44,883 bases of DNA, taken from the sequence record ON210144.1. The stretch is one strand, 5' to 3'. Below the pieces are notes generated by a model that worked only from the letters and a program-made list of their open reading frames with translations, was not told the origin of the DNA and searched no databases. Source of the stretch: Escherichia phage EEc2. Below, in pieces: positions 2,390-39,077 of this stretch. Position numbers and translations under genes: made by a program. Position 1 is the stretch's first letter. Each line of letters begins with the position of its first letter.

Positions 2390-3274
2390 ATGACTACTGA
2401 AAACATCCTCCTGTCTGTCCGTGAAGCTGCAACTGCTGAGATTAAGCAGCATTTGGATAATATCGGCACTTCTTACATCAAAGTTGGCGCTTGTCTGAAT
2501 GAATTGCGCGGTGATTTCGAAGGCCAAAAAGACTTTTTAGCTTATGTAGAATCAGAGTTCGGCATCAAGAAAGCACAATGCTACAAGCTGATGAGTGTAG
2601 CCCGTGTCTTTGAAGGAGACGAACGCTTTAAAGGTGTGGCTATGCGTGTAATGCTGGCACTCGTTCCTTTCGCTGATGAGAATATAATCATGGAGAAGGC
2701 CGCAGAACTCGCCGCAGATGGCAAGCTGGACACTAATGCCGTAAATGCCCTGATTGATCCTAAGAAAGAGACAAAGGCCGAGACGGTACAATCTAAGGCT
2801 GAGGCGGTAAAACCGCAGGAGAACGCGACTGAGTCCGCAGAATTACAGGAAATGCAAGCGCCGCAGGTAGTGCCACCCGCGAGCGAGCAGGAGGCCGACG
2901 AATCAGCACCTTGGGAAGAGGAAAGCAAGCCGGAAGCGCCTAAGGTCGCGCCACTGGATAACACGGCTAACACCGAGAGTGCCGCTATTGCTGGCCTTCT
3001 GGCACAAATTAAAGCACTGACCGAGCAATTACAGGCAGCTAATGACCGCATTGCCTCCTTAAGCAGCGCACGCGAAAGCAAGAAAGCAGCCGCTCCTATG
3101 CTGCCGCAATTCAAATCTTCCTGCTTCTATGCTCGCTTAGGTTTAAGCGCTGAGGAGGCAACGAAGAAAACAGCAGTTAACAAGGCACGCCGCGAACTGG
3201 TTAAGCTAGGATACGGCGAAGGCCATGAAGCATGGCCCTTAATCTCTGAGGCAGTAGAAGAATTAACTAAGTAA
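2390..3274 (+). CDS. Hypothetical early protein (294 aa), at the position of T7 gene 0.7 but with no kinase motifs
   Basis: ATG 2390 with AAGG 8 nt upstream (track start 2381 is GTG). Central Ala/Glu/Pro-rich low-complexity region and a C-terminal coiled-coil-like segment. Confidence 0.6.
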   Translation: MTTENILLSVREAATAEIKQHLDNIGTSYIKVGACLNELRGDFEGQKDFLAYVESEFGIKKAQCYKLMSVARVFEGDERFKGVAMRVMLALVPFADENIIMEKAAELAADGKLDTNAVNALIDPKKETKAETVQSKAEAVKPQENATESAELQEMQAPQVVPPASEQEADESAPWEEESKPEAPKVAPLDNTANTESAAIAGLLAQIKALTEQLQAANDRIASLSSARESKKAAAPMLPQFKSSCFYARLGLSAEEATKKTAVNKARRELVKLGYGEGHEAWPLISEAVEELTK

Positions 3275-3337
3275 CCTTATCGGTGGCATCTTCTTAGGTG
3301 TCACCTATTAAGGTTTCTTTCACTAGGAGTAAACAAG

Positions 3338-5965
3338 ATGCAAGACCTACACGCTATTCAACTTCAACTTGAAGAAGAAATGTTTAACGGCGGTATCCGT
3401 CGCTTTGAAGCGGACCAACAACGCCAGATTGCATCCGGTAATGAATCAGACACGGCATGGAATCGCCGCTTATTGTCCGAGTTAATCGCGCCAATGGCTG
3501 AAGGTATTCAGGCATACAAGGAAGAGTATGAAGGTAAAAGAGGCCGTGCACCGCGTGCATTAGCTTTCATTAACTGCGTAGAAAACGAAGTGGCAGCATA
3601 TATCACGATGAAAATCGTTATGGATATGCTGAACACGGATGTAACCTTGCAGGCTATAGCCATGAATGTAGCTGACCGCATTGAGGACCAAGTACGTTTT
3701 AGCAAGCTGGAAGGTCACGCCGCCAAATACTTTGAGAAAGTTAAGAAGTCACTTAAGGCAAGTAAGACTAAATCATATCGCCATGCGCACAACGTAGCGG
3801 TCGTGGCTGAGAAGTCAGTAGCTGACCGTGACGCTGATTTCTCTCGCTGGGAGGCGTGGCCTAAAGATACCTTGCTACAAATTGGTATGACCTTGCTAGA
3901 AATACTGGAAAATAGTGTATTCTTCAATGGTCAGCCTGTCTTTCTTCGCACCTTGCGCACTAATGGTGGCAAGCATGGCGTTTACTACTTACAGACTAGC
4001 GAACACGTGGGTGAATGGATAACTGCATTTAAAGAGCACGTAGCTCAGCTGAGTCCAGCCTATGCACCTTGCGTTATTCCTCCGCGTCCGTGGGTTTCTC
4101 CGTTTAATGGTGGCTTTCACACCGAGAAGGTGGCAAGTCGCATCCGTCTAGTAAAAGGTAACCGTGAGCACGTCCGTAAGCTGACTAAAAAGCAAATGCC
4201 AGCGGTTTATAAGGCTGTTAATGCATTGCAAGCCACTAAGTGGCAGGTTAACAAGGAAGTATTGCAGGTAGTAGAAGATGTTATTCGTCTAGACCTCGGT
4301 TATGGTGTACCTTCCTTTAAGCCGCTCATTGACCGCGAGAACAAACCAGCTAACCCTGTTCCTCTTGAGTTCCAACACCTGCGAGGCCGTGAACTGAAAG
4401 AGATGCTAACACCGGAGCAATGGCAGGCCTTCATCAACTGGAAGGGTGAATGTACTAAACTGTATACCGCTGAGACTAAGCGCGGCAGCAAGTCGGCGGC
4501 GACCGTCCGCATGGTAGGACAGGCCCGTAAATACAGCCAGTTTGACGCTATTTATTTTGTATATGCACTGGATAGCCGTTCACGCGTTTATGCGCAATCT
4601 AGCACGCTCTCGCCGCAATCAAACGACTTAGGCAAGGCATTGCTCCGTTTTACCGAAGGGCAGCGTCTTGATAGCGCTGAGGCGCTTAAGTGGTTTTTGG
4701 TGAACGGGGCGAATAACTGGGGTTGGGATAAGAAAACTTTTGACGTGCGCACCTCTAACGTGCTGGATGGCGAATTTCAAGACATGTGCCGCGACATTGC
4801 AGCCGATCCGCTGACCTTCACTCAATGGGTAAATGCTGATTCCCCTTACGGCTTCCTTGCATGGTGCTTTGAATATGCGCGTTATCTGGATGCACTGGAT
4901 GAAGGCACGCAAGACCAATTCATGACGCACCTACCCGTCCATCAAGACGGTAGTTGCTCTGGTATCCAGCACTATAGCGCGATGTTACGCGATGAAGTAG
5001 GTGCGAAAGCAGTAAACCTTAAGCCTTCTGACTTCCCTCAAGATATTTATGGCGCGGTTGCGCAGGTTGTTATCCAGAAGAATTACGCCTACATGAATGC
5101 AGACGATGCAGAGACTTTCACATCTGGAAGCGTCACACTTACAGGTGCAGAACTGCGTAGCATGGCTAGTGCGTGGGATATGATAGGAATAACTCGCGGA
5201 TTGACCAAAAAGCCCGTAATGACACTACCTTATGGCAGCACACGTCTAACCTGCCGTGAATCAGTGATTGATTATATCGTTGATTTGGAAGAAAAAGAGG
5301 CCCAACGAGCTATTGCGGAAGGGCGTACCGCCAATCCTGTACACCCTTTTGATAATGACCGTAAGGACAGCCTGACACCTAGCGCAGCTTATAACTATAT
5401 GACAGCTTTAATCTGGCCTTCTATTTCGGAAGTGGTTAAAGCTCCTATAGTGGCAATGAAAATGATTCGTCAGCTTGCCCGTTTCGCAGCTAAAAGGAAT
5501 GAAGGCTTAGAGTATACCTTGCCTACTGGCTTCATCTTGCAACAAAAGATTATGGCTACTGATATGCTCCGCGTATCCACTTGCCTGATGGGAGAAATCA
5601 AGATGAGTCTCCAGATTGAAACGGACGTAGTGGATGAAACGGCTATGATGGGCGCTGCTGCTCCTAACTTTGTGCATGGTCATGATGCCAGTCACCTTAT
5701 CTTAACAGTCTGCGACCTTGTTGATAAAGGGATTACATCTATCGCAGTCATTCATGATTCTTTCGGTACTCACGCAGGCCGTACAGCCGATCTTCGTGAT
5801 AGCTTAAGGGCAGAAATGGTGAAGATGTATCAAGGCCGTAATGCCCTGCAAAGCCTGTTAGATGAGCATGAAGAACGCTGGTTAGTAGACACCGGAATCC
5901 AAGTGCCAGAGCAAGGAGAGTTTGACCTTAACGAAATCTTAGTATCTGACTATTGCTTCGCATAA
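3338..5965 (+). CDS. Single-subunit DNA-directed RNA polymerase (T7 gene 1 type), 875 aa
   Basis: Motifs [13 protein letters not shown] and HDSFGT and a C-terminal ...CFA match the T7/SP6 RNAP family. TAGGAG SD upstream. Confidence 0.97.
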
Positions 5966-13124: not shown

Positions 13125-13145
13125 ATTTACTGGACACTATAGAAG
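13125..13145 (+). promoter_or_regulatory. Phage promoter P4 (ATTTACTGGACACTATAGAAG)
   Basis: Exact consensus; predicted +1 G at 13142. Confidence 0.85.
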
Positions 13146-17013: not shown

Positions 17014-18013
17014 GCTTCGCAGCTTGTACAAAGACTCCGAGGTACTTGATGCAATCGAGCAAGCTACCGACGAGAAAGGTAATGTTAATTACAATGAGAT
17101 GGCACGTGTATTATCGTGTCACCCTGTGGGTAAGAAGATTACCCGCCAGTTGGCTCGATACTGGCATGGTCAATTCAAGAAGACCAAGAAGAATGGTGAT
17201 TATTACCAGACCCTTCTGCAAGAAGATAAGCGTATCAAAGAAGAGCGTAAGCTCAGGACTCCTGACCGCTACGAGGATTTGGCTATTGTACCATTGCCTG
17301 ACTCGCCTCATCGAAGTGTATTGGTAATCCCTGATACTCATGCACCTTATGAGCATCCAGATACCTTAGAGTTCCTTGCAGCAGTCGCGGCACGTTACCG
17401 TCCAGATACAGTGGTTCACTTAGGAGATGAGGCAGATAAACACGCCCTCTCCTTCCATGACTCTGACCCGAATCTGGATAGTGCTGGCATGGAGCTAGAG
17501 AAGGCTCGTGTCTTCATGCACAAGTTGCACAAGATGTTCCCTGTGATGCGCCTGTGTCATTCTAATCACGGCTCTATGCACTTCCGTAAGGCAAGCGCCA
17601 AGGGTATTCCAGTGCAATATCTTCGCACCTACCGTGAAGTCTTCTTCCCAAATGGAGGTGGCGACCAGTGGGATTGGCAGCATACACATGTTCTTGAGTT
17701 GCCGAATGGCGAACAGGTGGCATTCAAGCATCAACCTGCTGGCTCTGTCCTAGCAGATGCAGCGCATGAGCGTATGAACCTTGTGTGTGGTCACTTGCAC
17801 GGTAAGATGTCTGTGGAGTACGCACGCAATACACATGAACAGTATTGGGCTGTGCAAGGTGGCTGCTTAATTGATGAGTCATCCCGTGCATTTGCCTATG
17901 GTCGTGAGTCTAAATACAAGCCAGCATTAGGTTGTGTGGTCATTCTGGAGGGTGTGCCTCACATTGTCCCGATGCAAACCAATAGCGACAACCGTTGGAT
18001 TGGCAAGATTTAG
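17006..18013 (+). CDS. Calcineurin-like metallophosphoesterase
   Basis: Motifs VIPDTHAPYEHP, HLGDEAD, CHSNHGS and CGHLHG. Start is a TTG at 17006 with AAGGAGG 6 nt upstream; first in-frame ATG is near 17097 with weak SD. Confidence 0.75.
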   Translation: MGKLRSLYKDSEVLDAIEQATDEKGNVNYNEMARVLSCHPVGKKITRQLARYWHGQFKKTKKNGDYYQTLLQEDKRIKEERKLRTPDRYEDLAIVPLPDSPHRSVLVIPDTHAPYEHPDTLEFLAAVAARYRPDTVVHLGDEADKHALSFHDSDPNLDSAGMELEKARVFMHKLHKMFPVMRLCHSNHGSMHFRKASAKGIPVQYLRTYREVFFPNGGGDQWDWQHTHVLELPNGEQVAFKHQPAGSVLADAAHERMNLVCGHLHGKMSVEYARNTHEQYWAVQGGCLIDESSRAFAYGRESKYKPALGCVVILEGVPHIVPMQTNSDNRWIGKI

Positions 18014-18028
18014 TTGACACTATAGAAC
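18008..18028 (+). promoter_or_regulatory. Phage promoter P7 (ATTTAGTTGACACTATAGAAC)
   Basis: Closest of all copies to the canonical SP6 promoter ATTTAGGTGACACTATAGAAG; overlaps the phosphoesterase stop; +1 G at 18025. Confidence 0.75.
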
Positions 18029-18113
18029 AAAGGGCTAGGTAAGACTTTATCGGCTGGCGTATCCAAATGATATTGCACTAGCCCTTGATTGTATAGTGAA
18101 TGGAGGATTCAAT

Positions 18114-18617
18114 ATGTCACACTATGAATGTAAGAAGTGTCATAAGCGTTATGATTACTGTACTTGTGGTCAAGAGAAAACATCTTTTAAAGTTGGAGAC
18201 AAGGTATTTCGTAATGAAAAAGATTCGATTCCTTGGAATCAATTCTGCAAAGAAGCTGGTATTGACCCTGATAGCCCTGTAACCATAGATGATATTGATG
18301 GCATTAACTTGTGCTTTCGTGAGGTGAGGGGTACAGGTTGGGATTCCAAAAAATTCAAACTTGCATCTGATAAGTTAGACAACAATATGGTTACTAAGCC
18401 TAAGCACTACGAGTTCTTCGATGGGGTAGAGGCAATCACTATCATTGCTCGTAGTATGACCGAGAAGCAATTCGCTGGCTATTGCATGGGTAATGCTTTG
18501 AAATATCGTCTGCGCGCAGGTAAGAAGTTCAACACTGAAGAAGACCTGAAGAAAGCAGACTACTACAAAGAGCTATTCCAGAAGCATCGTCACGAATGTA
18601 TTGATGAGGATATTTGA
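18114..18617 (+). CDS. Hypothetical protein with N-terminal Cys-rich zinc-ribbon-like motif (167 aa)
   Basis: ATG 18114 with GGAGGA upstream; YECKKCHKRYDYCTCG; conserved-looking block MTEKQFAGYCMGNALKYRLRAGKK. Confidence 0.6.
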   Translation: MSHYECKKCHKRYDYCTCGQEKTSFKVGDKVFRNEKDSIPWNQFCKEAGIDPDSPVTIDDIDGINLCFREVRGTGWDSKKFKLASDKLDNNMVTKPKHYEFFDGVEAITIIARSMTEKQFAGYCMGNALKYRLRAGKKFNTEEDLKKADYYKELFQKHRHECIDEDI

Positions 18618-18618
18618 T

Positions 18619-19566
18619 ATGAATATCTTTGAGTTCCTAGGTCTTCCAGAAGATCACCGCAATCACCCATTCATGCTGGTGAAGCATCGCGGTGAAGTCC
18701 CTGAGAAGAAATTAACTTTTCCATGTTATGCACAGGTGAAACGAGATGGAATATTCAGTGCTGTTGTGGTGCGCAATGATGGTGCTGTTGCCATCTTTGG
18801 TCGTACTGGTAAGAAGCTCGCAAATGTTGAATCCTTGGAAAAGACATTTAGTGTATTTCCTGTCGGGTTGTATCTTGGTGAGTTGCAATCTATGGCTGTT
18901 GATGTTTATCTTGAAGCTCTGTCAGGAGTGGTAAACCCTAATCGTACAGAGCCACTTGACTTCATAGGCCAGCAGATTAAAGACAACCTGTATATCGACT
19001 TCTTCGATATGTTAACTATTAAGGCATTCCATGATGGATTCACTGATGTTTCTTATCTCAAACGTTACGATGCTTTACATCGTCGTATCGGCGCTCATCT
19101 TAGCGGGTGCAACGCTATCCTTCCTATCACTCCTTGCCATAATGAGCGAGAAGTTGAAGCGTTTGCGCAAGAGCAAATAGATGCAGGCCGAGAAGGTGCG
19201 GTATTTAAACTTGACGTGGAGTACGAAAGTGGGCACAAGGGCTATCGTCAAACGAAGATCGTTCGTATGGTATCTTATGACCTCACCTGCATTGGGTGGG
19301 AGGAAGGAAAAGGTAAGTATAAAGGTAAAGTAGCTAATTTAATCTTTAAATGGAAAGGTGGTAAGTCCGTTAAGGCTATGCTGGGGCGTGGCTGGTCACA
19401 TGAGGATGCAGCACAGATGTATCACGATATTAAACACGGTGGCGAACTAAACGTCATTGGGAAAATCTTCGCTGTTAAGGCGTTACAGGAATCTAGTAAG
19501 GGAGTCCTGAGACTTCCCAAGGTTTCTGAACTTAGGTTTGATAAGGAAGCCCCTGATGTCTTCTAA
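18619..19566 (+). CDS. ATP-dependent DNA ligase (T7 gp1.3-like)
   Basis: Adenylation motif I (KxDG) as QVKRDGIF and motif IV as EGAVFK; ATG 18619 with GAGGA upstream. Confidence 0.85.
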   Translation: MNIFEFLGLPEDHRNHPFMLVKHRGEVPEKKLTFPCYAQVKRDGIFSAVVVRNDGAVAIFGRTGKKLANVESLEKTFSVFPVGLYLGELQSMAVDVYLEALSGVVNPNRTEPLDFIGQQIKDNLYIDFFDMLTIKAFHDGFTDVSYLKRYDALHRRIGAHLSGCNAILPITPCHNEREVEAFAQEQIDAGREGAVFKLDVEYESGHKGYRQTKIVRMVSYDLTCIGWEEGKGKYKGKVANLIFKWKGGKSVKAMLGRGWSHEDAAQMYHDIKHGGELNVIGKIFAVKALQESSKGVLRLPKVSELRFDKEAPDVF

Positions 19567-20053
19567 TCCAAATTATCGAAAACCACCTCGTACACCGCCA
19601 AGACCACTTGCCTACTGTCCTTTTACTGGAAAGCTTTTCCGTAAGTTCAAAGATGGCTGGAGAGAAACAGGACTTAGCAGAAAGAGTGATGGATATTTAC
19701 AGTGTAAAGTCGATGGTAAGACTGTAAGTGTTCATGTTTTAGCAATGAATATGATGGGTTATGACACTACCGGTTTTACAGTAGATCACATAAATCATAT
19801 ACGCTGGGATAATAGGTTTATTAATCTACGTCTATTATCTCATAAAGATAATTGTTTAAATAGAGAGGCGATACATATAAGTAAGCTGCCGAGTGGTAAC
19901 TACAGAGCGCGATGTGGAAATGTTCATCTTGGCGTATTTGAGGATAAGTTACTTGCTCGTGGTGCTATCCTATGGTATCGCCATAGGAGATTTAATAATG
20001 TTAAATTCAATGAAGGCAACGCGTGCCGTAGAAGTAGCCGAAGCTATATTTGA
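19556..20053 (+). CDS. HNH homing-type endonuclease (165 aa)
   Basis: VDHINHIRWDNRFINLRLLSHKDNCLN is a classic HNH motif; AAGGAAG SD; overlaps the ligase by 11 nt and the next gene by 56 nt. Confidence 0.8.
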   Translation: MSSNPNYRKPPRTPPRPLAYCPFTGKLFRKFKDGWRETGLSRKSDGYLQCKVDGKTVSVHVLAMNMMGYDTTGFTVDHINHIRWDNRFINLRLLSHKDNCLNREAIHISKLPSGNYRARCGNVHLGVFEDKLLARGAILWYRHRRFNNVKFNEGNACRRSSRSYI

Positions 20054-20192
20054 AACTCTATCCTGTGGCATGGAAGTGCCATATACTTTACTGGCTGATG
20101 CAGAAGAACTTGGTCTTTCTGTAGAAGCTATCCAAGAGAAGGTTGACGAATTATATGGTACAGACGAAGAAGAAACCGACGATTTCATTTGA
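19998..20192 (+). CDS. Hypothetical small acidic protein (64 aa)
   Basis: ATG 19998 with AGGAG 8 nt upstream; acidic C-terminus ...GTDEEETDDFI. Confidence 0.4.
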   Translation: MLNSMKATRAVEVAEAIFETLSCGMEVPYTLLADAEELGLSVEAIQEKVDELYGTDEEETDDFI

Positions 20193-20202
20193 AGGAATGG
20201 AG

Positions 20203-20325
20203 ATGCTTGAGATGATTCTCAAGCCTTCTTCTCCTAAGGTGACTAAGACTCATGAAGAGTTAATCGTTGATGAAGTTAAGCGTTACATCATGGATTGTGT
20301 CAGAGCACAACTGGTGGTCCAATGA
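20203..20325 (+). CDS. Hypothetical small protein (40 aa), translationally coupled to the GNAT gene
   Basis: ATG with AAGGA 6 nt upstream; stop overlaps the GNAT start as ATGA. Start ambiguous between 20197, 20203 and 20212. Confidence 0.3.
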   Translation: MLEMILKPSSPKVTKTHEELIVDEVKRYIMDCVRAQLVVQ

Positions 20326-20783
20326 TACGTCCAGCTTCCTTCCTAGATATTCCTGAGATTATAAACCTTGGGAATAAATATGTGGAAGAGGAAGTCAAGG
20401 TTGTAGCCCACCACTCAGCCTCATGGAATGCAGAACAAAGTGCACATAACCTTTGTGCATCTCTTAGTAGAGAAGATTTATTCCTATGGGTTGCTGTAGA
20501 TGAAGGGCAGATTGTAGGGTTCCTGTGGGCTGGCTATCACGAGTTGGCCCCTTGGACACCTGTAAGAGTTGCCTCTGACATTCTCTTTTATATTATACCA
20601 GAGAGGCGAGGAACACTTCTTGGTATGCGTCTCATCAAAGCCCTAAAGCAATGGGCTAGTGATAATGAATGCTCTGAGGTTCGCCTGTCTCTCGCCTCTG
20701 GTATTAATGAAGAACGTGTCGGACGTATGTATAAGCGACTTGGCTTTGAACCGTTTGGCACTGTGTATAACATGAAGTTCTAA
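20322..20783 (+). CDS. GNAT-family N-acetyltransferase (153 aa)
   Basis: Motif A region PERRGTLLGMRLIKALKQWA and C-terminal YKRLGFEPFG match the GNAT acetyl-CoA-binding fold pattern. Confidence 0.7.
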   Translation: MIRPASFLDIPEIINLGNKYVEEEVKVVAHHSASWNAEQSAHNLCASLSREDLFLWVAVDEGQIVGFLWAGYHELAPWTPVRVASDILFYIIPERRGTLLGMRLIKALKQWASDNECSEVRLSLASGINEERVGRMYKRLGFEPFGTVYNMKF

Positions 20784-20792
20784 GGAGATAAC

Positions 20793-21002
20793 ATGGGTGT
20801 TGTAAAGAAAGCATTTAAGGCTATCGGTCTTGCTCAAGATGCACCACGTATTGAAGCCAAAGTACCAGCACAGCAGCTTGAGCGTAAGCCTGAGACTGAA
20901 GCTGAAGATATTCAAATTGGTGCAGGTGGTGATGATGCGACTGCATCTGCAAAAGGTAAGCGCGGCCTTGTCCGTCCGGTAGCTTCTAGCTTGAAGGTGT
21001 GA
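20793..21002 (+). CDS. Hypothetical small protein upstream of portal (69 aa)
   Basis: TAAGGAG SD; positional analog of the small T7 6.7/7.3 proteins but no sequence claim made. Confidence 0.5.
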   Translation: MGVVKKAFKAIGLAQDAPRIEAKVPAQQLERKPETEAEDIQIGAGGDDATASAKGKRGLVRPVASSLKV

Positions 21003-21003
21003 T

Positions 21004-22554
21004 ATGAAACAGAGCACAGATTTGGAGTATGGAGGTAAGCGGTCTAAGATACCTAAGCTATGGGAGAAATTCTCCACTAAACGTAGCTCTTTCCTTGATA
21101 GGGCGAAGCATTACTCCAAATTAACCTTGCCCTATCTGATGAATGACAAAGGTGATAACGAGACTTCGCAGAATGGATGGCAAGGTGTAGGTGCTCAGGC
21201 AACCAACCATCTAGCCAATAAGCTAGCGCAAGTACTATTCCCTGCACAGCGTTCCTTCTTCCGTGTAGACTTAACTGCACAAGGTGAGAAGGTTCTTAAT
21301 CAGCGTGGCCTGAAGAAGACAGAGCTAGCTACCATCTTCGCTCAAGTGGAAACACGGGCAATGAAAGAGTTAGAGCAACGTCAATTCCGGCCTGCTGTAG
21401 TAGAAGCATTTAAGCATCTTATTGTTGCTGGCAGCTGTATGCTATACAAGCCGAGCAAAGGTGCAATCAGTGCTATCCCGATGCATCACTACGTAGTTAA
21501 CCGTGATACCAATGGCGACCTGTTAGACATTATCTTGCTACAAGAGAAAGCCTTACGTACCTTTGACCCAGCTACACGTGCTGTAGTAGAGGTTGGCCTG
21601 AAAGGTAAGAAGTGCAAAGAAGATGACAGCGTTAAGCTGTACACACATGCTAAGTATCTTGGTGATGGATTTTGGGAACTCAAGCAATCTGCTGATGATA
21701 TCCCTGTGGGTAAGGTGAGTAAAATCAAATCAGAAAAGCTACCTTTCATCCCATTAACTTGGAAGCGAAGCTATGGTGAGGATTGGGGTCGCCCTCTTGC
21801 AGAGGATTACTCCGGTGATTTATTCGTTATCCAATTCTTATCTGAAGCGGTTGCCCGTGGTGCTGCGCTGATGGCAGATATCAAGTACCTGATTCGTCCG
21901 GGTGCTCAAACTGATGTTGACCACTTTGTTAACTCTGGCACTGGTGAGGTTATCACTGGTGTAGAAGAAGACATCCATATTGTACAGTTAGGTAAGTATG
22001 CAGACCTCACACCTATTAGCGCGGTTCTAGAGGTATACACTCGCCGTATCGGTGTTGTCTTCATGATGGAGACAATGACACGCCGTGACGCCGAACGTGT
22101 TACTGCTGTAGAAATCCAGCGAGATGCGTTAGAGATTGAGCAGAACATGGGTGGTGTATACTCCCTCTTTGCTACTACTATGCAATCGCCAGTAGCGATG
22201 TGGGGTCTGCTGGAGGCAGGGGAGTCCTTCACTAGTGACCTAGTGGACCCTGTGATTATCACAGGTATTGAAGCTTTAGGACGCATGGCTGAGTTGGATA
22301 AACTGGCTAACTTTGCTCAGTATATGTCACTGCCATTACAATGGCCTGAGCCTGTCCTAGCTGCTGTGAAATGGCCTGACTATATGGATTGGGTGCGTGG
22401 TCAAATCTCTGCTGAACTGCCGTTCCTTAAATCAGCTGAAGAGATGGCACAAGAACAGGAAGCACAGATGCAAGCACAGCAAGCACAGATGCTTGAAGAA
22501 GGTGTGGCTAAGGCCGTGCCGGGTGTAATTCAACAAGAACTTAAGGAGGCGTAA
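21004..22554 (+). CDS. Portal (head-to-tail connector) protein, T7 gp8-like
   Basis: WQGVGAQATNHLANKLAQVLFPAQRSFFRVDL parallels the T7 gp8 N-terminal block as I recall it; 516 aa, correct synteny. Confidence 0.9.
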   Translation: MKQSTDLEYGGKRSKIPKLWEKFSTKRSSFLDRAKHYSKLTLPYLMNDKGDNETSQNGWQGVGAQATNHLANKLAQVLFPAQRSFFRVDLTAQGEKVLNQRGLKKTELATIFAQVETRAMKELEQRQFRPAVVEAFKHLIVAGSCMLYKPSKGAISAIPMHHYVVNRDTNGDLLDIILLQEKALRTFDPATRAVVEVGLKGKKCKEDDSVKLYTHAKYLGDGFWELKQSADDIPVGKVSKIKSEKLPFIPLTWKRSYGEDWGRPLAEDYSGDLFVIQFLSEAVARGAALMADIKYLIRPGAQTDVDHFVNSGTGEVITGVEEDIHIVQLGKYADLTPISAVLEVYTRRIGVVFMMETMTRRDAERVTAVEIQRDALEIEQNMGGVYSLFATTMQSPVAMWGLLEAGESFTSDLVDPVIITGIEALGRMAELDKLANFAQYMSLPLQWPEPVLAAVKWPDYMDWVRGQISAELPFLKSAEEMAQEQEAQMQAQQAQMLEEGVAKAVPGVIQQELKEA

Positions 22555-23474
22555 TGTCTTTCTCATTTACTGAACCGTCAACCACTCACCCTACTACTGA
22601 AGAGGGTCCGGTAGAAACCAAGGAGGTAACAACTGATGCTGCTACTACTGATGCTACTGCTGACGCTGGCACTGCTGTACAAGATGACAATGCTGGTGCA
22701 CAACCTACTGAAGACACCGGAGGAGAAGCTTCTGGACAGCCTTCAGAAAAAGGAGACAATGGCGGAGAGAATGGTGAATCTAAGCCAGATGATACCGCGA
22801 CCGACACTGAGGAAGTGCAATACTTCTTCGGAGAACATGAAGTAACAATAGACATCCCACAGGATGTAACTGACAGCCTTAAAGAGAAAGGCATTGATGC
22901 CAAGCAGGTTGCCAAGGAACTATATTCCAAAGGTGGCAAGTTTGAACTGTCAGATGCAACCAAGCAGAAATTGTATGATGCTTTTGGCAAGTTTGCGGTA
23001 GATGCTTACCTGTCAGGTCTTAAGGCTCAAAATGAAGCCTTCTTCCTGAAAGAAGCCAACGCAGCTAAAGAGTTGGAAGCAGCTAACACCCAACGCTTCT
23101 CTGATGTTTCTAAGGAAATTGGTGGCGAAGAAGGTTGGTCCCGTCTTGAGGAGTGGGCGCTTGAAACGCTATCCGATGACGAACTCACGGCATTCAATGC
23201 TGTGATGGAGTCTGGCAACCAGTACCTCCAGCAGTACGCTGTGCGTGAACTGGAGAGCCGCCGTAAGGCTGCACAGGGTGATGATAGGCCATCCCTGATT
23301 GAGCCATCAGCACCTGCTAAGGCTAATGAAGAGAATGGCCCACTGACGCGAGATCAGTACGTTCAAGCAATCGCAACTCTTAGCCAGAAGTACGGCAATG
23401 ACCGTAAAGCTATGGCAGAAGCTCAGGCTAAACTGGACGCCCGTCGCCGTGCTGGCATGGCTCGCGGTATCTAA
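22554..23474 (+). CDS. Capsid scaffolding protein (gp9-like)
   Basis: Acidic, low-complexity, helical 306-aa protein between portal and capsid; start overlaps the portal stop. Confidence 0.6.
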   Translation: MSFSFTEPSTTHPTTEEGPVETKEVTTDAATTDATADAGTAVQDDNAGAQPTEDTGGEASGQPSEKGDNGGENGESKPDDTATDTEEVQYFFGEHEVTIDIPQDVTDSLKEKGIDAKQVAKELYSKGGKFELSDATKQKLYDAFGKFAVDAYLSGLKAQNEAFFLKEANAAKELEAANTQRFSDVSKEIGGEEGWSRLEEWALETLSDDELTAFNAVMESGNQYLQQYAVRELESRRKAAQGDDRPSLIEPSAPAKANEENGPLTRDQYVQAIATLSQKYGNDRKAMAEAQAKLDARRRAGMARGI

Positions 23475-23480
23475 TTCAGT

Positions 23481-23501
23481 ATTTACTGGACACTATAGAA
23501 G
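23481..23501 (+). promoter_or_regulatory. Phage promoter P8 (ATTTACTGGACACTATAGAAG), capsid promoter
   Basis: Exact consensus; +1 G at 23498; 56 nt upstream of the capsid ATG. Confidence 0.85.
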
Positions 23502-24762: not shown

Positions 24763-24770
24763 CACCTATG

Positions 24771-24804
24771 CCCTATCTACCTTGCGTAGGTAGGGTTCTT
24801 TTTG
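24771..24804 (+). terminator. Hairpin plus U-run terminator T2 after the capsid gene
   Basis: 10-bp stem CCCTATCTAC / GTAGGTAGGG (one G-U), loop CTTGC, then TTCTTTTTG; 9 nt after the capsid stop, analogous to T7 T-phi. Confidence 0.7.
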
Positions 24805-25554: not shown

Positions 25555-27956
25555 TGGAAGTACAAGGTTCATTAGGTAGACAAATCCAAGGGATTAGCCA
25601 GCAGCCGCCAGCGGTACGCTTGGATGGTCAGTGCACAGCTATGGTTAATATGATACCTGATGTAGTGAATGGTACTCAATCACGCATGGGTACAACTCAT
25701 ATTGCAAAGATACTTGATGCGGGGACTGATGACATGGCTACCCATCATTATCGCAGAGGTGATGGTGATGAAGAGTATTTCTTCACGTTGAAGAAAGGAC
25801 AAGTTCCTGAGATATTTGATAAGTATGGGCGCAAATGTAATGTGACTTCACAAGATGCACCTATGACCTACCTCTCTGAGGTTGTTAATCCAAGGGAAGA
25901 TGTGCAATTCATGACGATAGCTGATGTTACTTTCATGCTTAATCGTAGGAAAGTAGTTAAAGCTAGTAGCAGGAAGTCACCTAAAGTTGGAAACAAAGCC
26001 ATTGTGTTTTGTGCGTATGGTCAATATGGTACATCTTATTCCATTGTAATTAATGGGGCCAACGCTGCTAGTTTTAAAACACCGGATGGTGGAAGTGCAG
26101 ACCATGTTGAACAAATTCGAACTGAACGTATCACTTCTGAATTGTACTCTAAGTTGCAGCAATGGAGCGGTGTGAGTGACTATGAAATACAAAGAGACGG
26201 TACTAGTATATTTATCGAGAGACGGGATGGTGCTAGCTTTACAATAACAACCACCGATGGTGCAAAAGGTAAGGACTTAGTGGCTATCAAGAATAAAGTT
26301 AGCTCTACTGACCTACTCCCTTCTCGTGCGCCTGCTGGTTATAAAGTACAAGTGTGGCCTACTGGCAGCAAACCTGAGTCTCGTTACTGGCTGCAAGCTG
26401 AGCCTAAAGAGGGAAACCTTGTGTCTTGGAAAGAAACAATAGCTGCTGATGTATTACTTGGGTTTGATAAAGGCACAATGCCTTACATTATTGAACGTAC
26501 AGATATCATCAACGGCATAGCTCAATTCAAGATAAGACAAGGTGATTGGGAAGATCGTAAAGTAGGGGATGACTTGACTAACCCTATGCCCTCTTTTATT
26601 GATGAGGAAGTACCCCAGACAATAGGTGGAATGTTCATGGTGCAGAACCGCCTATGCTTTACAGCAGGTGAAGCGGTTATTGCTTCTCGTACATCATACT
26701 TCTTCGATTTCTTTCGTTATACGGTTATCTCTGCATTGGCAACTGACCCCTTTGATATTTTCTCAGATGCTAGTGAAGTCTACCAGCTAAAACATGCAGT
26801 GACCTTAGATGGCGCTACCGTGTTGTTCTCTGATAAGTCACAATTCATACTGCCAGGCGATAAGCCTTTAGAGAAGTCAAATGCACTGCTTAAGCCTGTT
26901 ACAACATTTGAAGTGAACAATAAAGTGAAGCCAGTAGTAACTGGTGAATCGGTAATGTTTGCCACTAATGATGGTTCTTACTCTGGTGTACGAGAGTTCT
27001 ATACAGACTCTTATAGTGACACTAAGAAGGCACAAGCAATCACAAGTCATGTGAATAAACTCATCGAAGGTAACATTACCAACATGGCAGCAAGCACCAA
27101 TGTCAACAGGTTACTTGTCACTACCGATAAGTATCGTAACATAATCTACTGCTACGATTGGTTATGGCAAGGAACAGACCGTGTACAATCAGCATGGCAT
27201 GTATGGAAGTGGCCTATAGGTACAAAGGTGCGAGGTATGTTTTATTCTGGTGAATTACTTTACCTGCTCCTTGAGCGAGGAGATGGCGTGTATCTGGAGA
27301 AGATGGACATGGGTGATGCACTAACCTATGGTTTGAATGACCGCATCAGAATGGATAGGCAAGCAGAGTTAGTCTTCAAGCATTTCAAAGCAGAAGATGA
27401 ATGGGTATCTGAGCCGCTCCCTTGGGTTCCTACTAACCCAGAACTTTTAGATTGCATCTTAATCGAGGGTTGGGATTCATATATTGGCGGCTCTTTCTTA
27501 TTCAAGTACAACCCTAGTGACAATACTTTGTCTACAACCTTTGATATGTATGATGACAGCCATGTAAAAGCGAAGGTTATTGTTGGTCAGATTTACCCTC
27601 AAGAGTTTGAACCTACGCCTGTGGTTATCAGAGACAATCAAGACCGTGTATCCTACATTGATGTACCAGTTGTAGGATTGGTTCACCTTAATCTTGACAT
27701 GTACCCCGATTTCTCCGTAGAAGTTAAGAATGTGAAGAGTGGTAAAGTACGTAGAGTATTAGCGTCAAACCGTATAGGTGGTGCTCTCAATAATACAGTA
27801 GGCTATGTTGAACCGAGAGAAGGTGTCTTCAGATTTCCACTGAGAGCTAAGAGCACGGATGTTGTTTATCGTATTATTGTAGAGTCACCTCACACATTCC
27901 AGCTTCGTGATATTGAGTGGGAAGGGAGCTACAATCCAACCAAAAGGAGGGTCTAA
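25554..27956 (+). CDS. Tail tubular protein B (gp12-like), 800 aa
   Basis: ATG overlapping the previous stop with GGGAGG upstream; size and position match T7 gp12. Confidence 0.7.
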   Translation: MEVQGSLGRQIQGISQQPPAVRLDGQCTAMVNMIPDVVNGTQSRMGTTHIAKILDAGTDDMATHHYRRGDGDEEYFFTLKKGQVPEIFDKYGRKCNVTSQDAPMTYLSEVVNPREDVQFMTIADVTFMLNRRKVVKASSRKSPKVGNKAIVFCAYGQYGTSYSIVINGANAASFKTPDGGSADHVEQIRTERITSELYSKLQQWSGVSDYEIQRDGTSIFIERRDGASFTITTTDGAKGKDLVAIKNKVSSTDLLPSRAPAGYKVQVWPTGSKPESRYWLQAEPKEGNLVSWKETIAADVLLGFDKGTMPYIIERTDIINGIAQFKIRQGDWEDRKVGDDLTNPMPSFIDEEVPQTIGGMFMVQNRLCFTAGEAVIASRTSYFFDFFRYTVISALATDPFDIFSDASEVYQLKHAVTLDGATVLFSDKSQFILPGDKPLEKSNALLKPVTTFEVNNKVKPVVTGESVMFATNDGSYSGVREFYTDSYSDTKKAQAITSHVNKLIEGNITNMAASTNVNRLLVTTDKYRNIIYCYDWLWQGTDRVQSAWHVWKWPIGTKVRGMFYSGELLYLLLERGDGVYLEKMDMGDALTYGLNDRIRMDRQAELVFKHFKAEDEWVSEPLPWVPTNPELLDCILIEGWDSYIGGSFLFKYNPSDNTLSTTFDMYDDSHVKAKVIVGQIYPQEFEPTPVVIRDNQDRVSYIDVPVVGLVHLNLDMYPDFSVEVKNVKSGKVRRVLASNRIGGALNNTVGYVEPREGVFRFPLRAKSTDVVYRIIVESPHTFQLRDIEWEGSYNPTKRRV

Positions 27957-28678
27957 TGGCTATAGGTTCAGCCGTTATGGCTGGTATGTCTTCTATTGGT
28001 AGCATGTTTGCAGGCAGTGGTGCAGCAGCCGCTGCTGGAGGTGCTGCCGCAGGTGGCGGAGGTTTGCTAGGTTCACTAGGTGGATTCCTAAGTGGCTCTA
28101 CTGCTGGTTTCTCTAATGCTGGCCTTCTTGGTGCTGGCCTTCAAGGGTTAGGCTTGATTGGTGATCTATTTGGTGGAAGTGATGAAGCCAAGGCGATGAA
28201 GAAAGCACAAGAAGAGCAATGGCGGCAGCAGCTTATTGCTACACAAGAGGCGTACAAGACAGTGGCAGACGCAGAACGTTCTGCTGCTAAACAATATCAT
28301 GCAGATGCAATCAGTAATCAGGCTTCACTGCTACAGCAGCGAGCACAGGTTGCATTACTTGCTGGGGCTACTGGTACTGGTGGTAATTCTGTGTCCTCTA
28401 TGCTTAATGACTTAGCAGCAGATGGCGGCAGGAACCAGAGTACTATCATTGATAACTATGAGAATCAGAAGATTAATTTCACCAACCAGCTTAAGTCTAT
28501 CCAACGTGGTGGTCAGATGCAGATGCGTGAGTTTAAGAAGCCTTCTGCTATGAATACCTTGGTTAAAGGTATTCCAAGTCTGGCATCTGCCTATGTAACT
28601 GGTAGTAAGTCTGGCAAGGCATTGGGTAAAGCCTTAACTGATTCTCGCACATATTCATCTGGAACAAGAGGTATTTAA
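27956..28678 (+). CDS. Internal virion protein, Gly/Ala-rich N-terminus (240 aa)
   Basis: ATG 27956 with AAAGGAGGG upstream; Gly/Ala-rich N-terminal 70 residues; positional analog of T7 gp13/14. Confidence 0.6.
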   Translation: MAIGSAVMAGMSSIGSMFAGSGAAAAAGGAAAGGGGLLGSLGGFLSGSTAGFSNAGLLGAGLQGLGLIGDLFGGSDEAKAMKKAQEEQWRQQLIATQEAYKTVADAERSAAKQYHADAISNQASLLQQRAQVALLAGATGTGGNSVSSMLNDLAADGGRNQSTIIDNYENQKINFTNQLKSIQRGGQMQMREFKKPSAMNTLVKGIPSLASAYVTGSKSGKALGKALTDSRTYSSGTRGI

Positions 28679-38490: not shown

Positions 38491-38772
38491 ATGGCTAATA
38501 ATTATAGTGATCAACCACTAACAGGACGATATGATCGAAAGCAGGAGACGCCTGTAAGTGAAGCGTTAATGCTCCCTGTTGTTACAGAGGAGTCTATTAC
38601 GAAGAAATCCAATGTTATCAATGATGCAACCAAATCTGGCAAACAGAAAGCAGCAATGGTGTGTCGCCCTGTAGGTGGCACTCTTGAGATTGCCATTGCT
38701 ACTGGCAGCAAAGAGGATGCAGATTGGTTGTCTGTTAAAATGGATGGCGTTGGTCTTATTACACCGGCTTAA
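38491..38772 (+). CDS. Small protein, paralog A of a tandem family (93 aa)
   Basis: AAGGAG SD; shares ...INxxxxSGKQKxAMVxxxxxGxxxxIAIAxGSxxxDxW... with paralogs B and C. Confidence 0.6.
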   Translation: MANNYSDQPLTGRYDRKQETPVSEALMLPVVTEESITKKSNVINDATKSGKQKAAMVCRPVGGTLEIAIATGSKEDADWLSVKMDGVGLITPA

Positions 38773-38789: not shown

Positions 38790-39077
38790 ATGTCTAAGTA
38801 TGGCGATGCAGGTACTACTACTGGTCAGGCTTTTCGTGTAAAAGCAGTACAAACTATTGCAACTGCAATCCCTATGCCTATCGTAGCAGAAGCTGACCTT
38901 AAAAAGAAAGATCATCCTATTAATATTGAACACCTATCTGGTAAGCAGAAAGGTGCTATGGTGGTTGTAGATAAGGGAGATAATAGCCTTTATATTGCTA
39001 TTGCACGTGGTTCTGCACCAACTGACCAGTGGGATGTAACTACTATGGAAGCTGTACCTGTAACACCAGGAGCTTAA
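38790..39077 (+). CDS. Small protein, paralog B of a tandem family (95 aa)
   Basis: AAAAGGAGAAG SD; aligns with A and C across HLSGKQKGAMVVVDKGDNSLYIAIARGSAPTDQWD. Confidence 0.6.
   Translation: MSKYGDAGTTTGQAFRVKAVQTIATAIPMPIVAEADLKKKDHPINIEHLSGKQKGAMVVVDKGDNSLYIAIARGSAPTDQWDVTTMEAVPVTPGA

Follow-up and report, generated by a model that had tools for sequence, protein, structure and literature searches.

What is a small acetyltransferase doing at the threshold of the portal gene of an SP6-like phage? The question is raised by Escherichia phage EEc2, whose 44,883-nucleotide (nt) sequence (record ON210144.1) is the stretch analyzed here in its entirety ("the window"; all coordinates are counted along it). 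Between positions 20,203 and 20,783 an open reading frame (ORF) for a protein of 153 amino acids (aa), with the look of a GNAT acetyltransferase, overlaps the end of a smaller ORF by four nucleotides. The 153-aa ORF is a genuine GNAT and, by gene order, stands at the start of the virion-assembly genes. The role that is favored for it below, with a probability of about 0.4, is that of a protein acetyltransferase serving morphogenesis or the infectivity of the particle.

The GNAT assignment was first proposed from an acetyl-CoA-binding signature in an earlier, model-made reading of the bare letters (the sequence-only reading), and profile search and structure prediction bear it out. The protein matches Pfam PF00583 (Acetyltransf_1) at E 3.4e-10 with 40.7 bits, against a gathering cutoff of 20.7, and also passes the cutoffs of Acetyltransf_7 (PF13508; 38.6 against 27) and Acetyltransf_10 (PF13673; 24.9 against 23.6); residues 1-152 match phrog_1249, "acetyltransferase", at E 1.6e-53. 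An AlphaFold2 (AF2) model (pLDDT 90.4, pTM 0.86) has its elements in the order of the GNAT topology, β1-α1-α2-β2-β3-β4-α3-β5-α4-β6. Presented with this model, Foldseek retrieves 793 PDB chains at E<=1e-3, of which the top 50 are all GNATs or GNAT-type acetyltransferase entries; the probability is 1.00 to many GNAT structures, and TM-scores reach 0.78.

Is it a working enzyme? Motif A (Q/R-x-x-G-x-G/A, in the β4-α3 loop) is present as a variant, R96-G97-T-L-L-G101, in which the central Gly is replaced; HMMER aligns this stretch with the R-G-Q-G-I-G loop of diamine acetyltransferase 2. In a family alignment of 144 sequences, R96 is retained in 141 (98%), G97 in 128 (89%), and A or G at position 101 in 131 (91%). 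In the same alignment D86 is kept as D or E in 92% and G141 in 97%; Y137, which aligns with the Tyr of "LYKALG" in SSAT2, is Y in 74% and Y or F in 85%; and three residues peculiar to the family, R3, D9 and W111, are conserved at 94-97%. Backbone contacts could make the missing central Gly tolerable, and D86 and E119 are candidate bases. Despite the departure from the textbook motif, the pattern of conservation is what a working enzyme would be expected to leave, and the protein is probably catalytically competent.

The gene itself is not new. Over the 2 kb around it, identity is 99.3% to Escherichia phage 6949 and 95-98% to K1-5, VEc3 and many Vectrevirus records; on this comparison the phage is a Vectrevirus of the K1-5/K1E type, in the SP6 supergroup (Autographiviridae, Molineuxvirinae), and not a T7-type phage. 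The homologous order in the K1-5 RefSeq entry is gene 25, gene 26, "acetyltransferase" (gene 27), gene 28, head-tail adaptor, and the label "acetyltransferase" already stands on gene 27 of K1-5, gene 27 of K1E and gene 28 of SP6. The ORF is thus, by alignment and position, the Vectrevirus copy of SP6 gene 28/K1-5 gene 27, and the novelty implied by the sequence-only reading falls away. These genes share its position and its ATGA overlap with a small upstream gene; the protein is 95-99% identical to the Vectrevirus copies and 74% identical to that of SP6. (In the K1-5 reference copy there is, in addition, an imperfect tandem duplication of 66 nt, worth 22 aa, and nothing else material sets it apart: in NC_008152, at 2813-3340, gene 27 encodes 175 aa, with the 22-aa duplicate HHSASWNAEQSA... 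in the α1-α2 region, while the window protein and all other relatives have 153 aa and no duplication. It is either a genuine strain-specific event or an assembly artefact.)

The surroundings of the gene are as follows.

20010 to 20192, (+) strand: coding sequence of an acidic 60-aa protein, homologue of K1-5 gene 25 (phrog_5860, E 1.6e-35), first in the conserved block
20155 to 20325, (+) strand: small coding sequence, probably of 56 aa, homologue of K1-5 gene 26 (phrog_6507, E 2.1e-37 over residues 1-56)
20313 to 20317, (+) strand: GGTGG, Shine-Dalgarno-like by its sequence and presumably by function, 4 nt upstream of the GNAT ATG and within the last codons (V-V) of the small coding sequence
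20322 to 20325, (+) strand: ATGA start/stop overlap of the small coding sequence and the GNAT gene, as read in the sequence (ATG 20322-20324, TGA 20323-20325)
20322 to 20783, (+) strand: GNAT acetyltransferase coding sequence, 153 aa, from ATG to TAA (ORF, Pfam, phrog_1249, AF2 and Foldseek; Vectrevirus records hold proteins 97-99% identical to it)
20793 to 21002, (+) strand: gp7.3-like small virion/tail-assembly protein, 69 aa, directly downstream of the GNAT gene (phrog_1320, E 1.9e-11; phrog_9033, E 1.1e-12)
21004 to 22554, (+) strand: portal (head-tail connector), end of the conserved block (annotation of K1-5 and phage 6949 at the homologous position; 87% identity to SP6)

The GNAT gene had been assigned to the DNA-metabolism block of the genome. 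It stands third, instead, in a conserved block of five genes; the portal gene closes this block, which is collinear with genes 6.5 to 8 of T7. The succession of acidic 60-aa protein, 56-aa protein, GNAT, ~60-70-aa protein, portal and scaffold is kept in the SP6, Klebsiella and Proteus relatives. The same pre-portal block recurs in Era103, a phage of Erwinia, and in VEN and Njord of the Colwellvirinae, and the EDIQIG...GKRxLVRP motif of the 69-aa protein is common to Era103 gp34, VEN gp32 and Njord gp26. T7 and other Studiervirinae have the order 6.5 - 6.7 - 7 - 7.3 - (7.7 HNH) - 8, the T7 block following the phi6.5 promoter; AP10 and phiEap-1 show a 4-nt overlap of genes 6.7 and 7, and T7 gp7.3 falls in phrog_1320 (E 9.7e-30), the family of the window's 69-aa protein. 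T7 gp6.5, the positional counterpart of the acidic 60-aa protein, likewise has an acidic tail at its end; when the window's small proteins are compared with T7 gp6.5 and gp6.7 by BLAST nothing significant emerges, and their equivalence is one of position only. T7 gene 7 ("host range", phrog_2746) has exactly the slot of the GNAT gene: after a small protein, before gp7.3 and portal. In phage LUZ19 the order is gp27 (83 aa) - gp28, the GNAT called Rac - gp29 (a virion protein) - gp30, the portal; in JG068 it is RNA polymerase (RNAP)-GNAT-portal. Gene order thus places the window GNAT where T7 has gene 7 and LUZ19 has Rac, at the head of the virion-assembly genes.

How far does this association with assembly genes extend? 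A tblastn search finds the GNAT protein in 248 phage records, down to gp26.2 of Roseobacter phage SIO1, and the family profile collects 1231 cluster representatives at E<=1e-10. SIO1 gp26.2 is listed among the acetyltransferases of the slot of internal virion protein A (IVP-A) (Hardies et al. 2016, PMC4819975). In three metagenomic loci (L033, L051 and L055) GNATs of the same PHROG as the window protein (E ~1e-27) come directly after tail tubular protein B (phrog_376), with an ATGA overlap, and before the internal virion proteins; in another locus (L037) the GNAT directly follows the portal gene. Skadi-1, which is stated to lack a phage RNAP, has its homologue in the late structural operon; the IVP-A-slot arrangement is also that of ZP6, an Alteromonas phage for which no phage RNAP is listed in the published annotation table. 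The IVP-A-slot proteins, clear homologues of the window GNAT, are like it small, non-structural GNATs amid morphogenesis genes; they differ in location, between tail tubular protein B and IVP-B rather than upstream of the portal. As mapped by these searches, the podovirus small-GNAT lineage is located almost exclusively in or at the head of the virion-morphogenesis genes, in two slots: 1) before the gp7.3-like gene and the portal (the window, the Colwellvirinae and, with Rac, the phiKMV-like phages), corresponding to T7 gene 7; and 2) between tail tubular protein B and internal virion protein B, corresponding to T7 gp13 (IVP-A). In the window the second slot is empty:

27954 to 27958, (+) strand: TAATG junction at which the gene of tail tubular protein B (810 aa) meets the internal-virion-protein gene that follows, with no gene in the T7 gp13 (IVP-A) slot

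Searching the window with a gp13 profile yields no gp13 homologue, and the window holds no second GNAT.

(Some distant homologues are longer. Four of them, P0068, P0072, P0076 and P0092, have 318-385 aa and match the family profile in two stretches, apparently as tandem GNAT domains. Six long distant homologues were checked for a fused domain that might hint at a substrate; none was found, only GNAT domains, in some cases two.)

Transcription signals put the gene in the same company. Perfect K1-5-type consensus promoters lie at 13125, 14819, 23481 and 40688. Consensus searches find no phage promoter between 18008 and 23481, and the nearest candidate upstream of the GNAT gene, which may be a weaker or differently timed promoter, is this:

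18008 to 18028, (+) strand: SP6-type promoter-like site found by consensus search, ATTTAGTTGACACTATAGAAC, with 3 mismatches to the K1-5-type consensus

Of terminator-like hairpins, the only strong one (24770-24796) comes after the capsid gene. Because no promoter intervenes from 18008 to 23481 and termination is first signaled beyond the capsid gene, the GNAT gene is predicted to share one message with the DUF3310, ligase and HNH genes upstream and with the gp7.3-like gene, portal and scaffold downstream.

The small gene that precedes the GNAT is real. Outside its overlap with the preceding gene, nonsynonymous change (pN 0.14-0.43) lags behind synonymous change (pS 0.51-0.81), the mark of purifying selection. 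The ATGA overlap stands as originally described: it is kept in 27 of the 28 evaluable SP6-like loci, the remaining one having a 1-nt overlap, and GGTG is present 4-8 nt upstream of the GNAT ATG in all SP6-like loci. Coupling of the two genes is genuine but routine for this genome, since stop/start overlaps occur at ~10 gene junctions in the window. The length of 40 aa that had been given to the small product is another matter. The frame is open from 20143 and has ATGs at 20155, 20197, 20203 and 20212; the 40-aa version starts at 20203, which has a good Shine-Dalgarno sequence (GAAGGA). Public gene calls are all of 56-58 aa, including K1-5 gene 26 and phage 6949. The N-terminal sequence M-x-x-x-K-K-K-P-T-I-x-x-E-G is conserved as protein in the SP6, Klebsiella and Proteus relatives, where a GGAGG or GAGGA precedes the upstream ATG, and neither a Proteus relative (L030) nor Era103 gp32 has a Met at the equivalents of 20197 and 20203. 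The comparative data favor 20155 as the most likely start, which would make the product 56 aa long. Both starts may serve, because the Shine-Dalgarno sequence ahead of 20155 has decayed in the clade of the window. The AF2 model of the 56-aa protein (pLDDT 90) consists of a strand and a two-helix hairpin; it matches no PDB fold significantly (best E 0.7), and the protein has no Pfam match.

(Two further observations on this small gene and its neighbor. Within the small ORF, at 20199-20231 on the (+) strand, there is a stable RNA hairpin (about -17 to -21 kcal/mol): GGAGA / GCTTGAGA-TGAT-TCTCAAGC / TCTCC. It sequesters the internal ATGs at 20203 and 20212, is kept, through compensatory changes, in two sub-clades (L013; L020-L025) and is absent from the SP6, Klebsiella and Proteus relatives; it could disfavor internal initiation or serve as a regulatory element. 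The 56-aa gene overlaps, in another frame, the last 38 nt of the acidic 60-aa coding sequence, whose product has an acidic/aromatic C-terminal tail (...DEEETDDFI) that is conserved at the same place in SP6, Era103, VEN and Njord.)

What might such a gene do in such a place? A scheme can be offered in which 1) the phage RNAP would transcribe it on one long message running into the portal and scaffold genes; 2) the GNAT would be translated in tandem with the conserved 56-aa protein through the ATGA overlap and the internal GGTGG; 3) it would bind acetyl-CoA through the β4-α3 loop (R96-G97...G101); 4) late in infection it would acetylate amino groups of proteins, the favored targets being the phage's own small, Lys-rich tail-assembly or ejection proteins from the same transcript, or their assembly partners; and 5) the acetylation would affect the infectivity of particles, a morphogenetic role like that of IVP-A or gene 7. 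The gene's identity, conservation, synteny, co-transcription signals and homology to the IVP-A-slot GNATs are matters of observation; that the protein is enzymatically active, that its substrate is a protein and that the target is a component of the virion are three things we infer. A part in morphogenesis or infectivity is preferred, at the probability of about 0.4 given above, for four reasons: because secure homologues sit in the IVP-A slot, also in phages without a phage RNAP (Skadi-1, and ZP6 to the extent that none is listed); because SP6-like phages have no separate IVP-A; because the T7 slot-mate, gene 7, is annotated "host range", a label that can be read as a particle-infectivity phenotype; and because transcription signals put the gene on one message with the gp7.3-like gene and the portal.

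A good deal weighs on the other side. No member of phrog_1249 has been studied experimentally, and the collection of literature that was searched yielded no functional or proteomic work on SP6/K1-5 gp27/28. Rac, the sole equivalent by position to have been characterized, has host proteins as its targets (PMC7552054). Among solved structures, those closest in sequence are small-molecule acetyltransferases. In a compact genome with routine overlaps, adjacency and co-transcription are no proof of a functional link. And the thread that leads to the T7 proteins is thin. The statement, also made from the letters of the window, that T7 has no acetyltransferase is right as to annotation and too strong beyond it: gene 7 in the same slot has a faint similarity to the GNAT lineage, and T7 IVP-A (gp13), which is needed for morphogenesis and absent from virions, is reported to match acetyltransferases by HHpred (PMC4819975). 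In the present analysis gp13 aligns with the family weakly, over 103 collinear columns (hhalign E 0.004, Prob 8%), and the gp7 family does so over 66 columns (E 0.011, Prob 4%). HMMER detects neither link, and the gp13 profile finds only PF11090 in PDB and Pfam searches, with no tie to GNATs; PF11090 (Phage_T7_Gp13), in turn, is not among the Pfam matches of the window GNAT at E<=1. A narrow family profile (A1, Neff 2.1) finds neither gp13 nor Rac by hhalign, and the broader one of 144 sequences is needed. The motif-A region of gp7 (128-136 aa) aligns collinearly with that of the GNAT, and weak PHROG cross-hits (E 0.002-0.025), reciprocal at the profile level, join gp7, Rac and a phrog_1249 member; hhalign gives no support for a relation of gp7 to the Rac family, for which the cross-hits are the sole connection, and the similarity of gp7 to the window GNAT is not statistically secure (E 0.01-0.05). 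Both T7 proteins lack the R-G...G loop (the acetyl-CoA loop), and gp13 is only marginally similar to the window protein; if they are related to the GNAT, their role need not be catalytic.

The close rival to a morphogenetic role is a host-directed one of the kind described for Rac: the GNAT would acetylate host proteins (proteostasis or transcription factors, for example) at the middle-to-late transition and so aid the shut-off of host RNAP or of some other process. Rac needs its acetyl-CoA pocket, raises the acetylation of host proteins and causes cleavage of RpoA (PMC7552054), and it is the only positional equivalent to have been studied experimentally (PMC7552054). The layouts are alike: Rac, an Autographiviridae GNAT of ~155 aa, has before it a small ORF that overlaps it stop to start and after it the genes of a small virion protein and the portal, and in JG068 the GNAT stands between RNAP and portal. 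So, at a distance, are the proteins: the broad family profile aligns with Rac over 93 columns (hhalign Prob 68%, E 4.8e-5; hmmsearch E 2.5e-5), and the best PHROG of Rac after its own (phrog_3986) is phrog_1249, at E 4.9e-4. The two proteins nevertheless show no pairwise similarity (BLASTP E 4.9; no phrog_3986 match for the window GNAT), the narrow profile is equally silent, and the C-terminal half of Rac diverges after motif A. The Rac gene of LUZ19 follows the phage RNAP gene, whereas the GNAT gene of the window follows ligase; the window's phage RNAP gene lies early (3338-5965), and a switch of host RNAP operated from next to the portal would come late. RpoA cleavage is genus-specific even within the Krylovirinae: LKA1 has a GNAT in the same place and does not cleave RpoA. 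Finally, clear homologues of the window GNAT are found in the late structural operons of podoviruses that have no phage RNAP, as stated for Skadi-1 and as the gene list of ZP6 has it. A Rac-like function is possible on this balance, and somewhat doubtful.

Could the substrate be a small molecule, a polyamine or a toxic amino-acid analogue, acetylated so as to condition or detoxify the cell? The best sequence matches in the PDB are the polyamine acetyltransferase DpA (E 1.2e-4), diamine acetyltransferase 2 (E 2.2e-4) and the PA4866/PAT type; the top TM-scores, 0.77-0.78, are to phosphinothricin/BAR/ArsN enzymes; and ArsN1 and AAC(6') head the NCBIfam matches. The structurally solved enzymes of this kind (DpA, SSAT; PAT/BAR/ArsN) share the fold with the window protein (TM 0.70-0.78) and align with it in the motif A and motif B regions; R3, D9 and W111 lie outside the signatures of their families. 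The best characterized relatives, which include polyamine, phosphinothricin and N-terminal acetyltransferases, are 14-23% identical to the window GNAT, in keeping with the original view that the substrate cannot be read off the sequence. Among the NCBIfam equivalogs tested (PAT/ArsN1, AAC(6') and RimI) the best score, ArsN1a, is 26.7 bits against a cutoff of 170, with RimI at 21.9 against 86.4; N-terminal protein acetyltransferases (Naa60) score as well as the small-molecule enzymes do; and a conserved place amid morphogenesis genes across several subfamilies would be unusual for an auxiliary metabolic gene. A small-molecule substrate is unlikely.

A counter-defense function, in which the GNAT would acetylate and thereby inactivate an effector of host immunity, is more improbable still. 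It has a general precedent among phage GNATs (AcrVA5 inactivates Cas12a by acetylation), and the wide spread of the family in lytic podoviruses, in the numbers given above, would suit it. Counter-defense genes are, however, usually early, variable and patchy in distribution, and this one is fixed in position, close to the late genes and conserved from phages of Enterobacteria to those of Roseobacter; a PADLOC scan for relatives of defense systems gave no signal.

That the pair might be a toxin-antitoxin-like module (a tRNA-acetylating toxin of the TacT/AtaT type with a ribbon-helix-helix (RHH) antidote), as suggested by a small gene overlapping a downstream GNAT of ~150 aa in the manner of type II GNAT-RHH modules and by an N-terminus, KKKPTISFEGMEMLEMIL, superficially like the RHH strand-helix (RHH protein HP0222 at E 1.3), is very hard to credit: Pfam finds neither RHH nor DUF1778 in the small protein, whose model has no significant fold match, no toxin is described among the GNAT's top 50 Foldseek PDB matches, and the pair is collinear with T7 genes 6.7-7 in the operon of a strictly lytic phage. 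(The RHH antitoxin identity of the small ORF, entertained for its KKKPTISFEG-MEMLEMIL pattern and the marginal HP0222 match, was rejected on the Pfam and PDB-fold results.)

Two matters of annotation elsewhere in the window deserve a note. Between ligase and the acidic 60-aa gene lies an inserted ORF of 171 aa for an HNH_3 homing endonuclease (19538-20053, (+) strand; Pfam E 8.4e-9); of 81 related phage records only 3, those of phage 6949 and two of LI10P3, cover its stretch, and it looks like a mobile insertion because K1-5 and most other relatives are without it. Two adjacent ORFs of ~95 aa lie at 38491-38772 and 38790-39077 on the (+) strand. Homologues of the 95-aa one, paired in several relatives, bear the label "acetyl-CoA acetyltransferase" (SP6 gene 43, for example); at 95 aa these proteins fall far short of the length of a thiolase, the GNAT family profile does not match them, and the label has probably been propagated in error.

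To rediscover an annotated gene is no great surprise, and nothing categorically new is claimed here; its placement and its relatives are more informative than could be seen in the letters of the window. Among the non-structural genes of the non-T7 Autographiviridae and related podoviruses for which no substrate has yet been named, it is one of the most widely conserved. Collinearity ties together three literatures that had not been connected: that of SP6 gene 28/K1-5 gene 27, that of Rac, and that of T7 gene 7 or IVP-A. One can go further and imagine that the window GNAT, the IVP-A-slot acetyltransferases, the Rac of the phiKMV-like phages, T7 gp7 and T7 gp13 all descend from one ancestral "morphogenesis acetyltransferase", that those still active acetylate Lys-rich ejection or tail-assembly proteins (gp7.3- and gp6.7-like), and that the 56-aa partner is a specificity or regulatory subunit. 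This wider proposal, taken as a whole, is improbable, though worth stating for what would follow from it: such acetylation would be a hitherto undescribed post-translational step in the assembly and infectivity of podoviruses.

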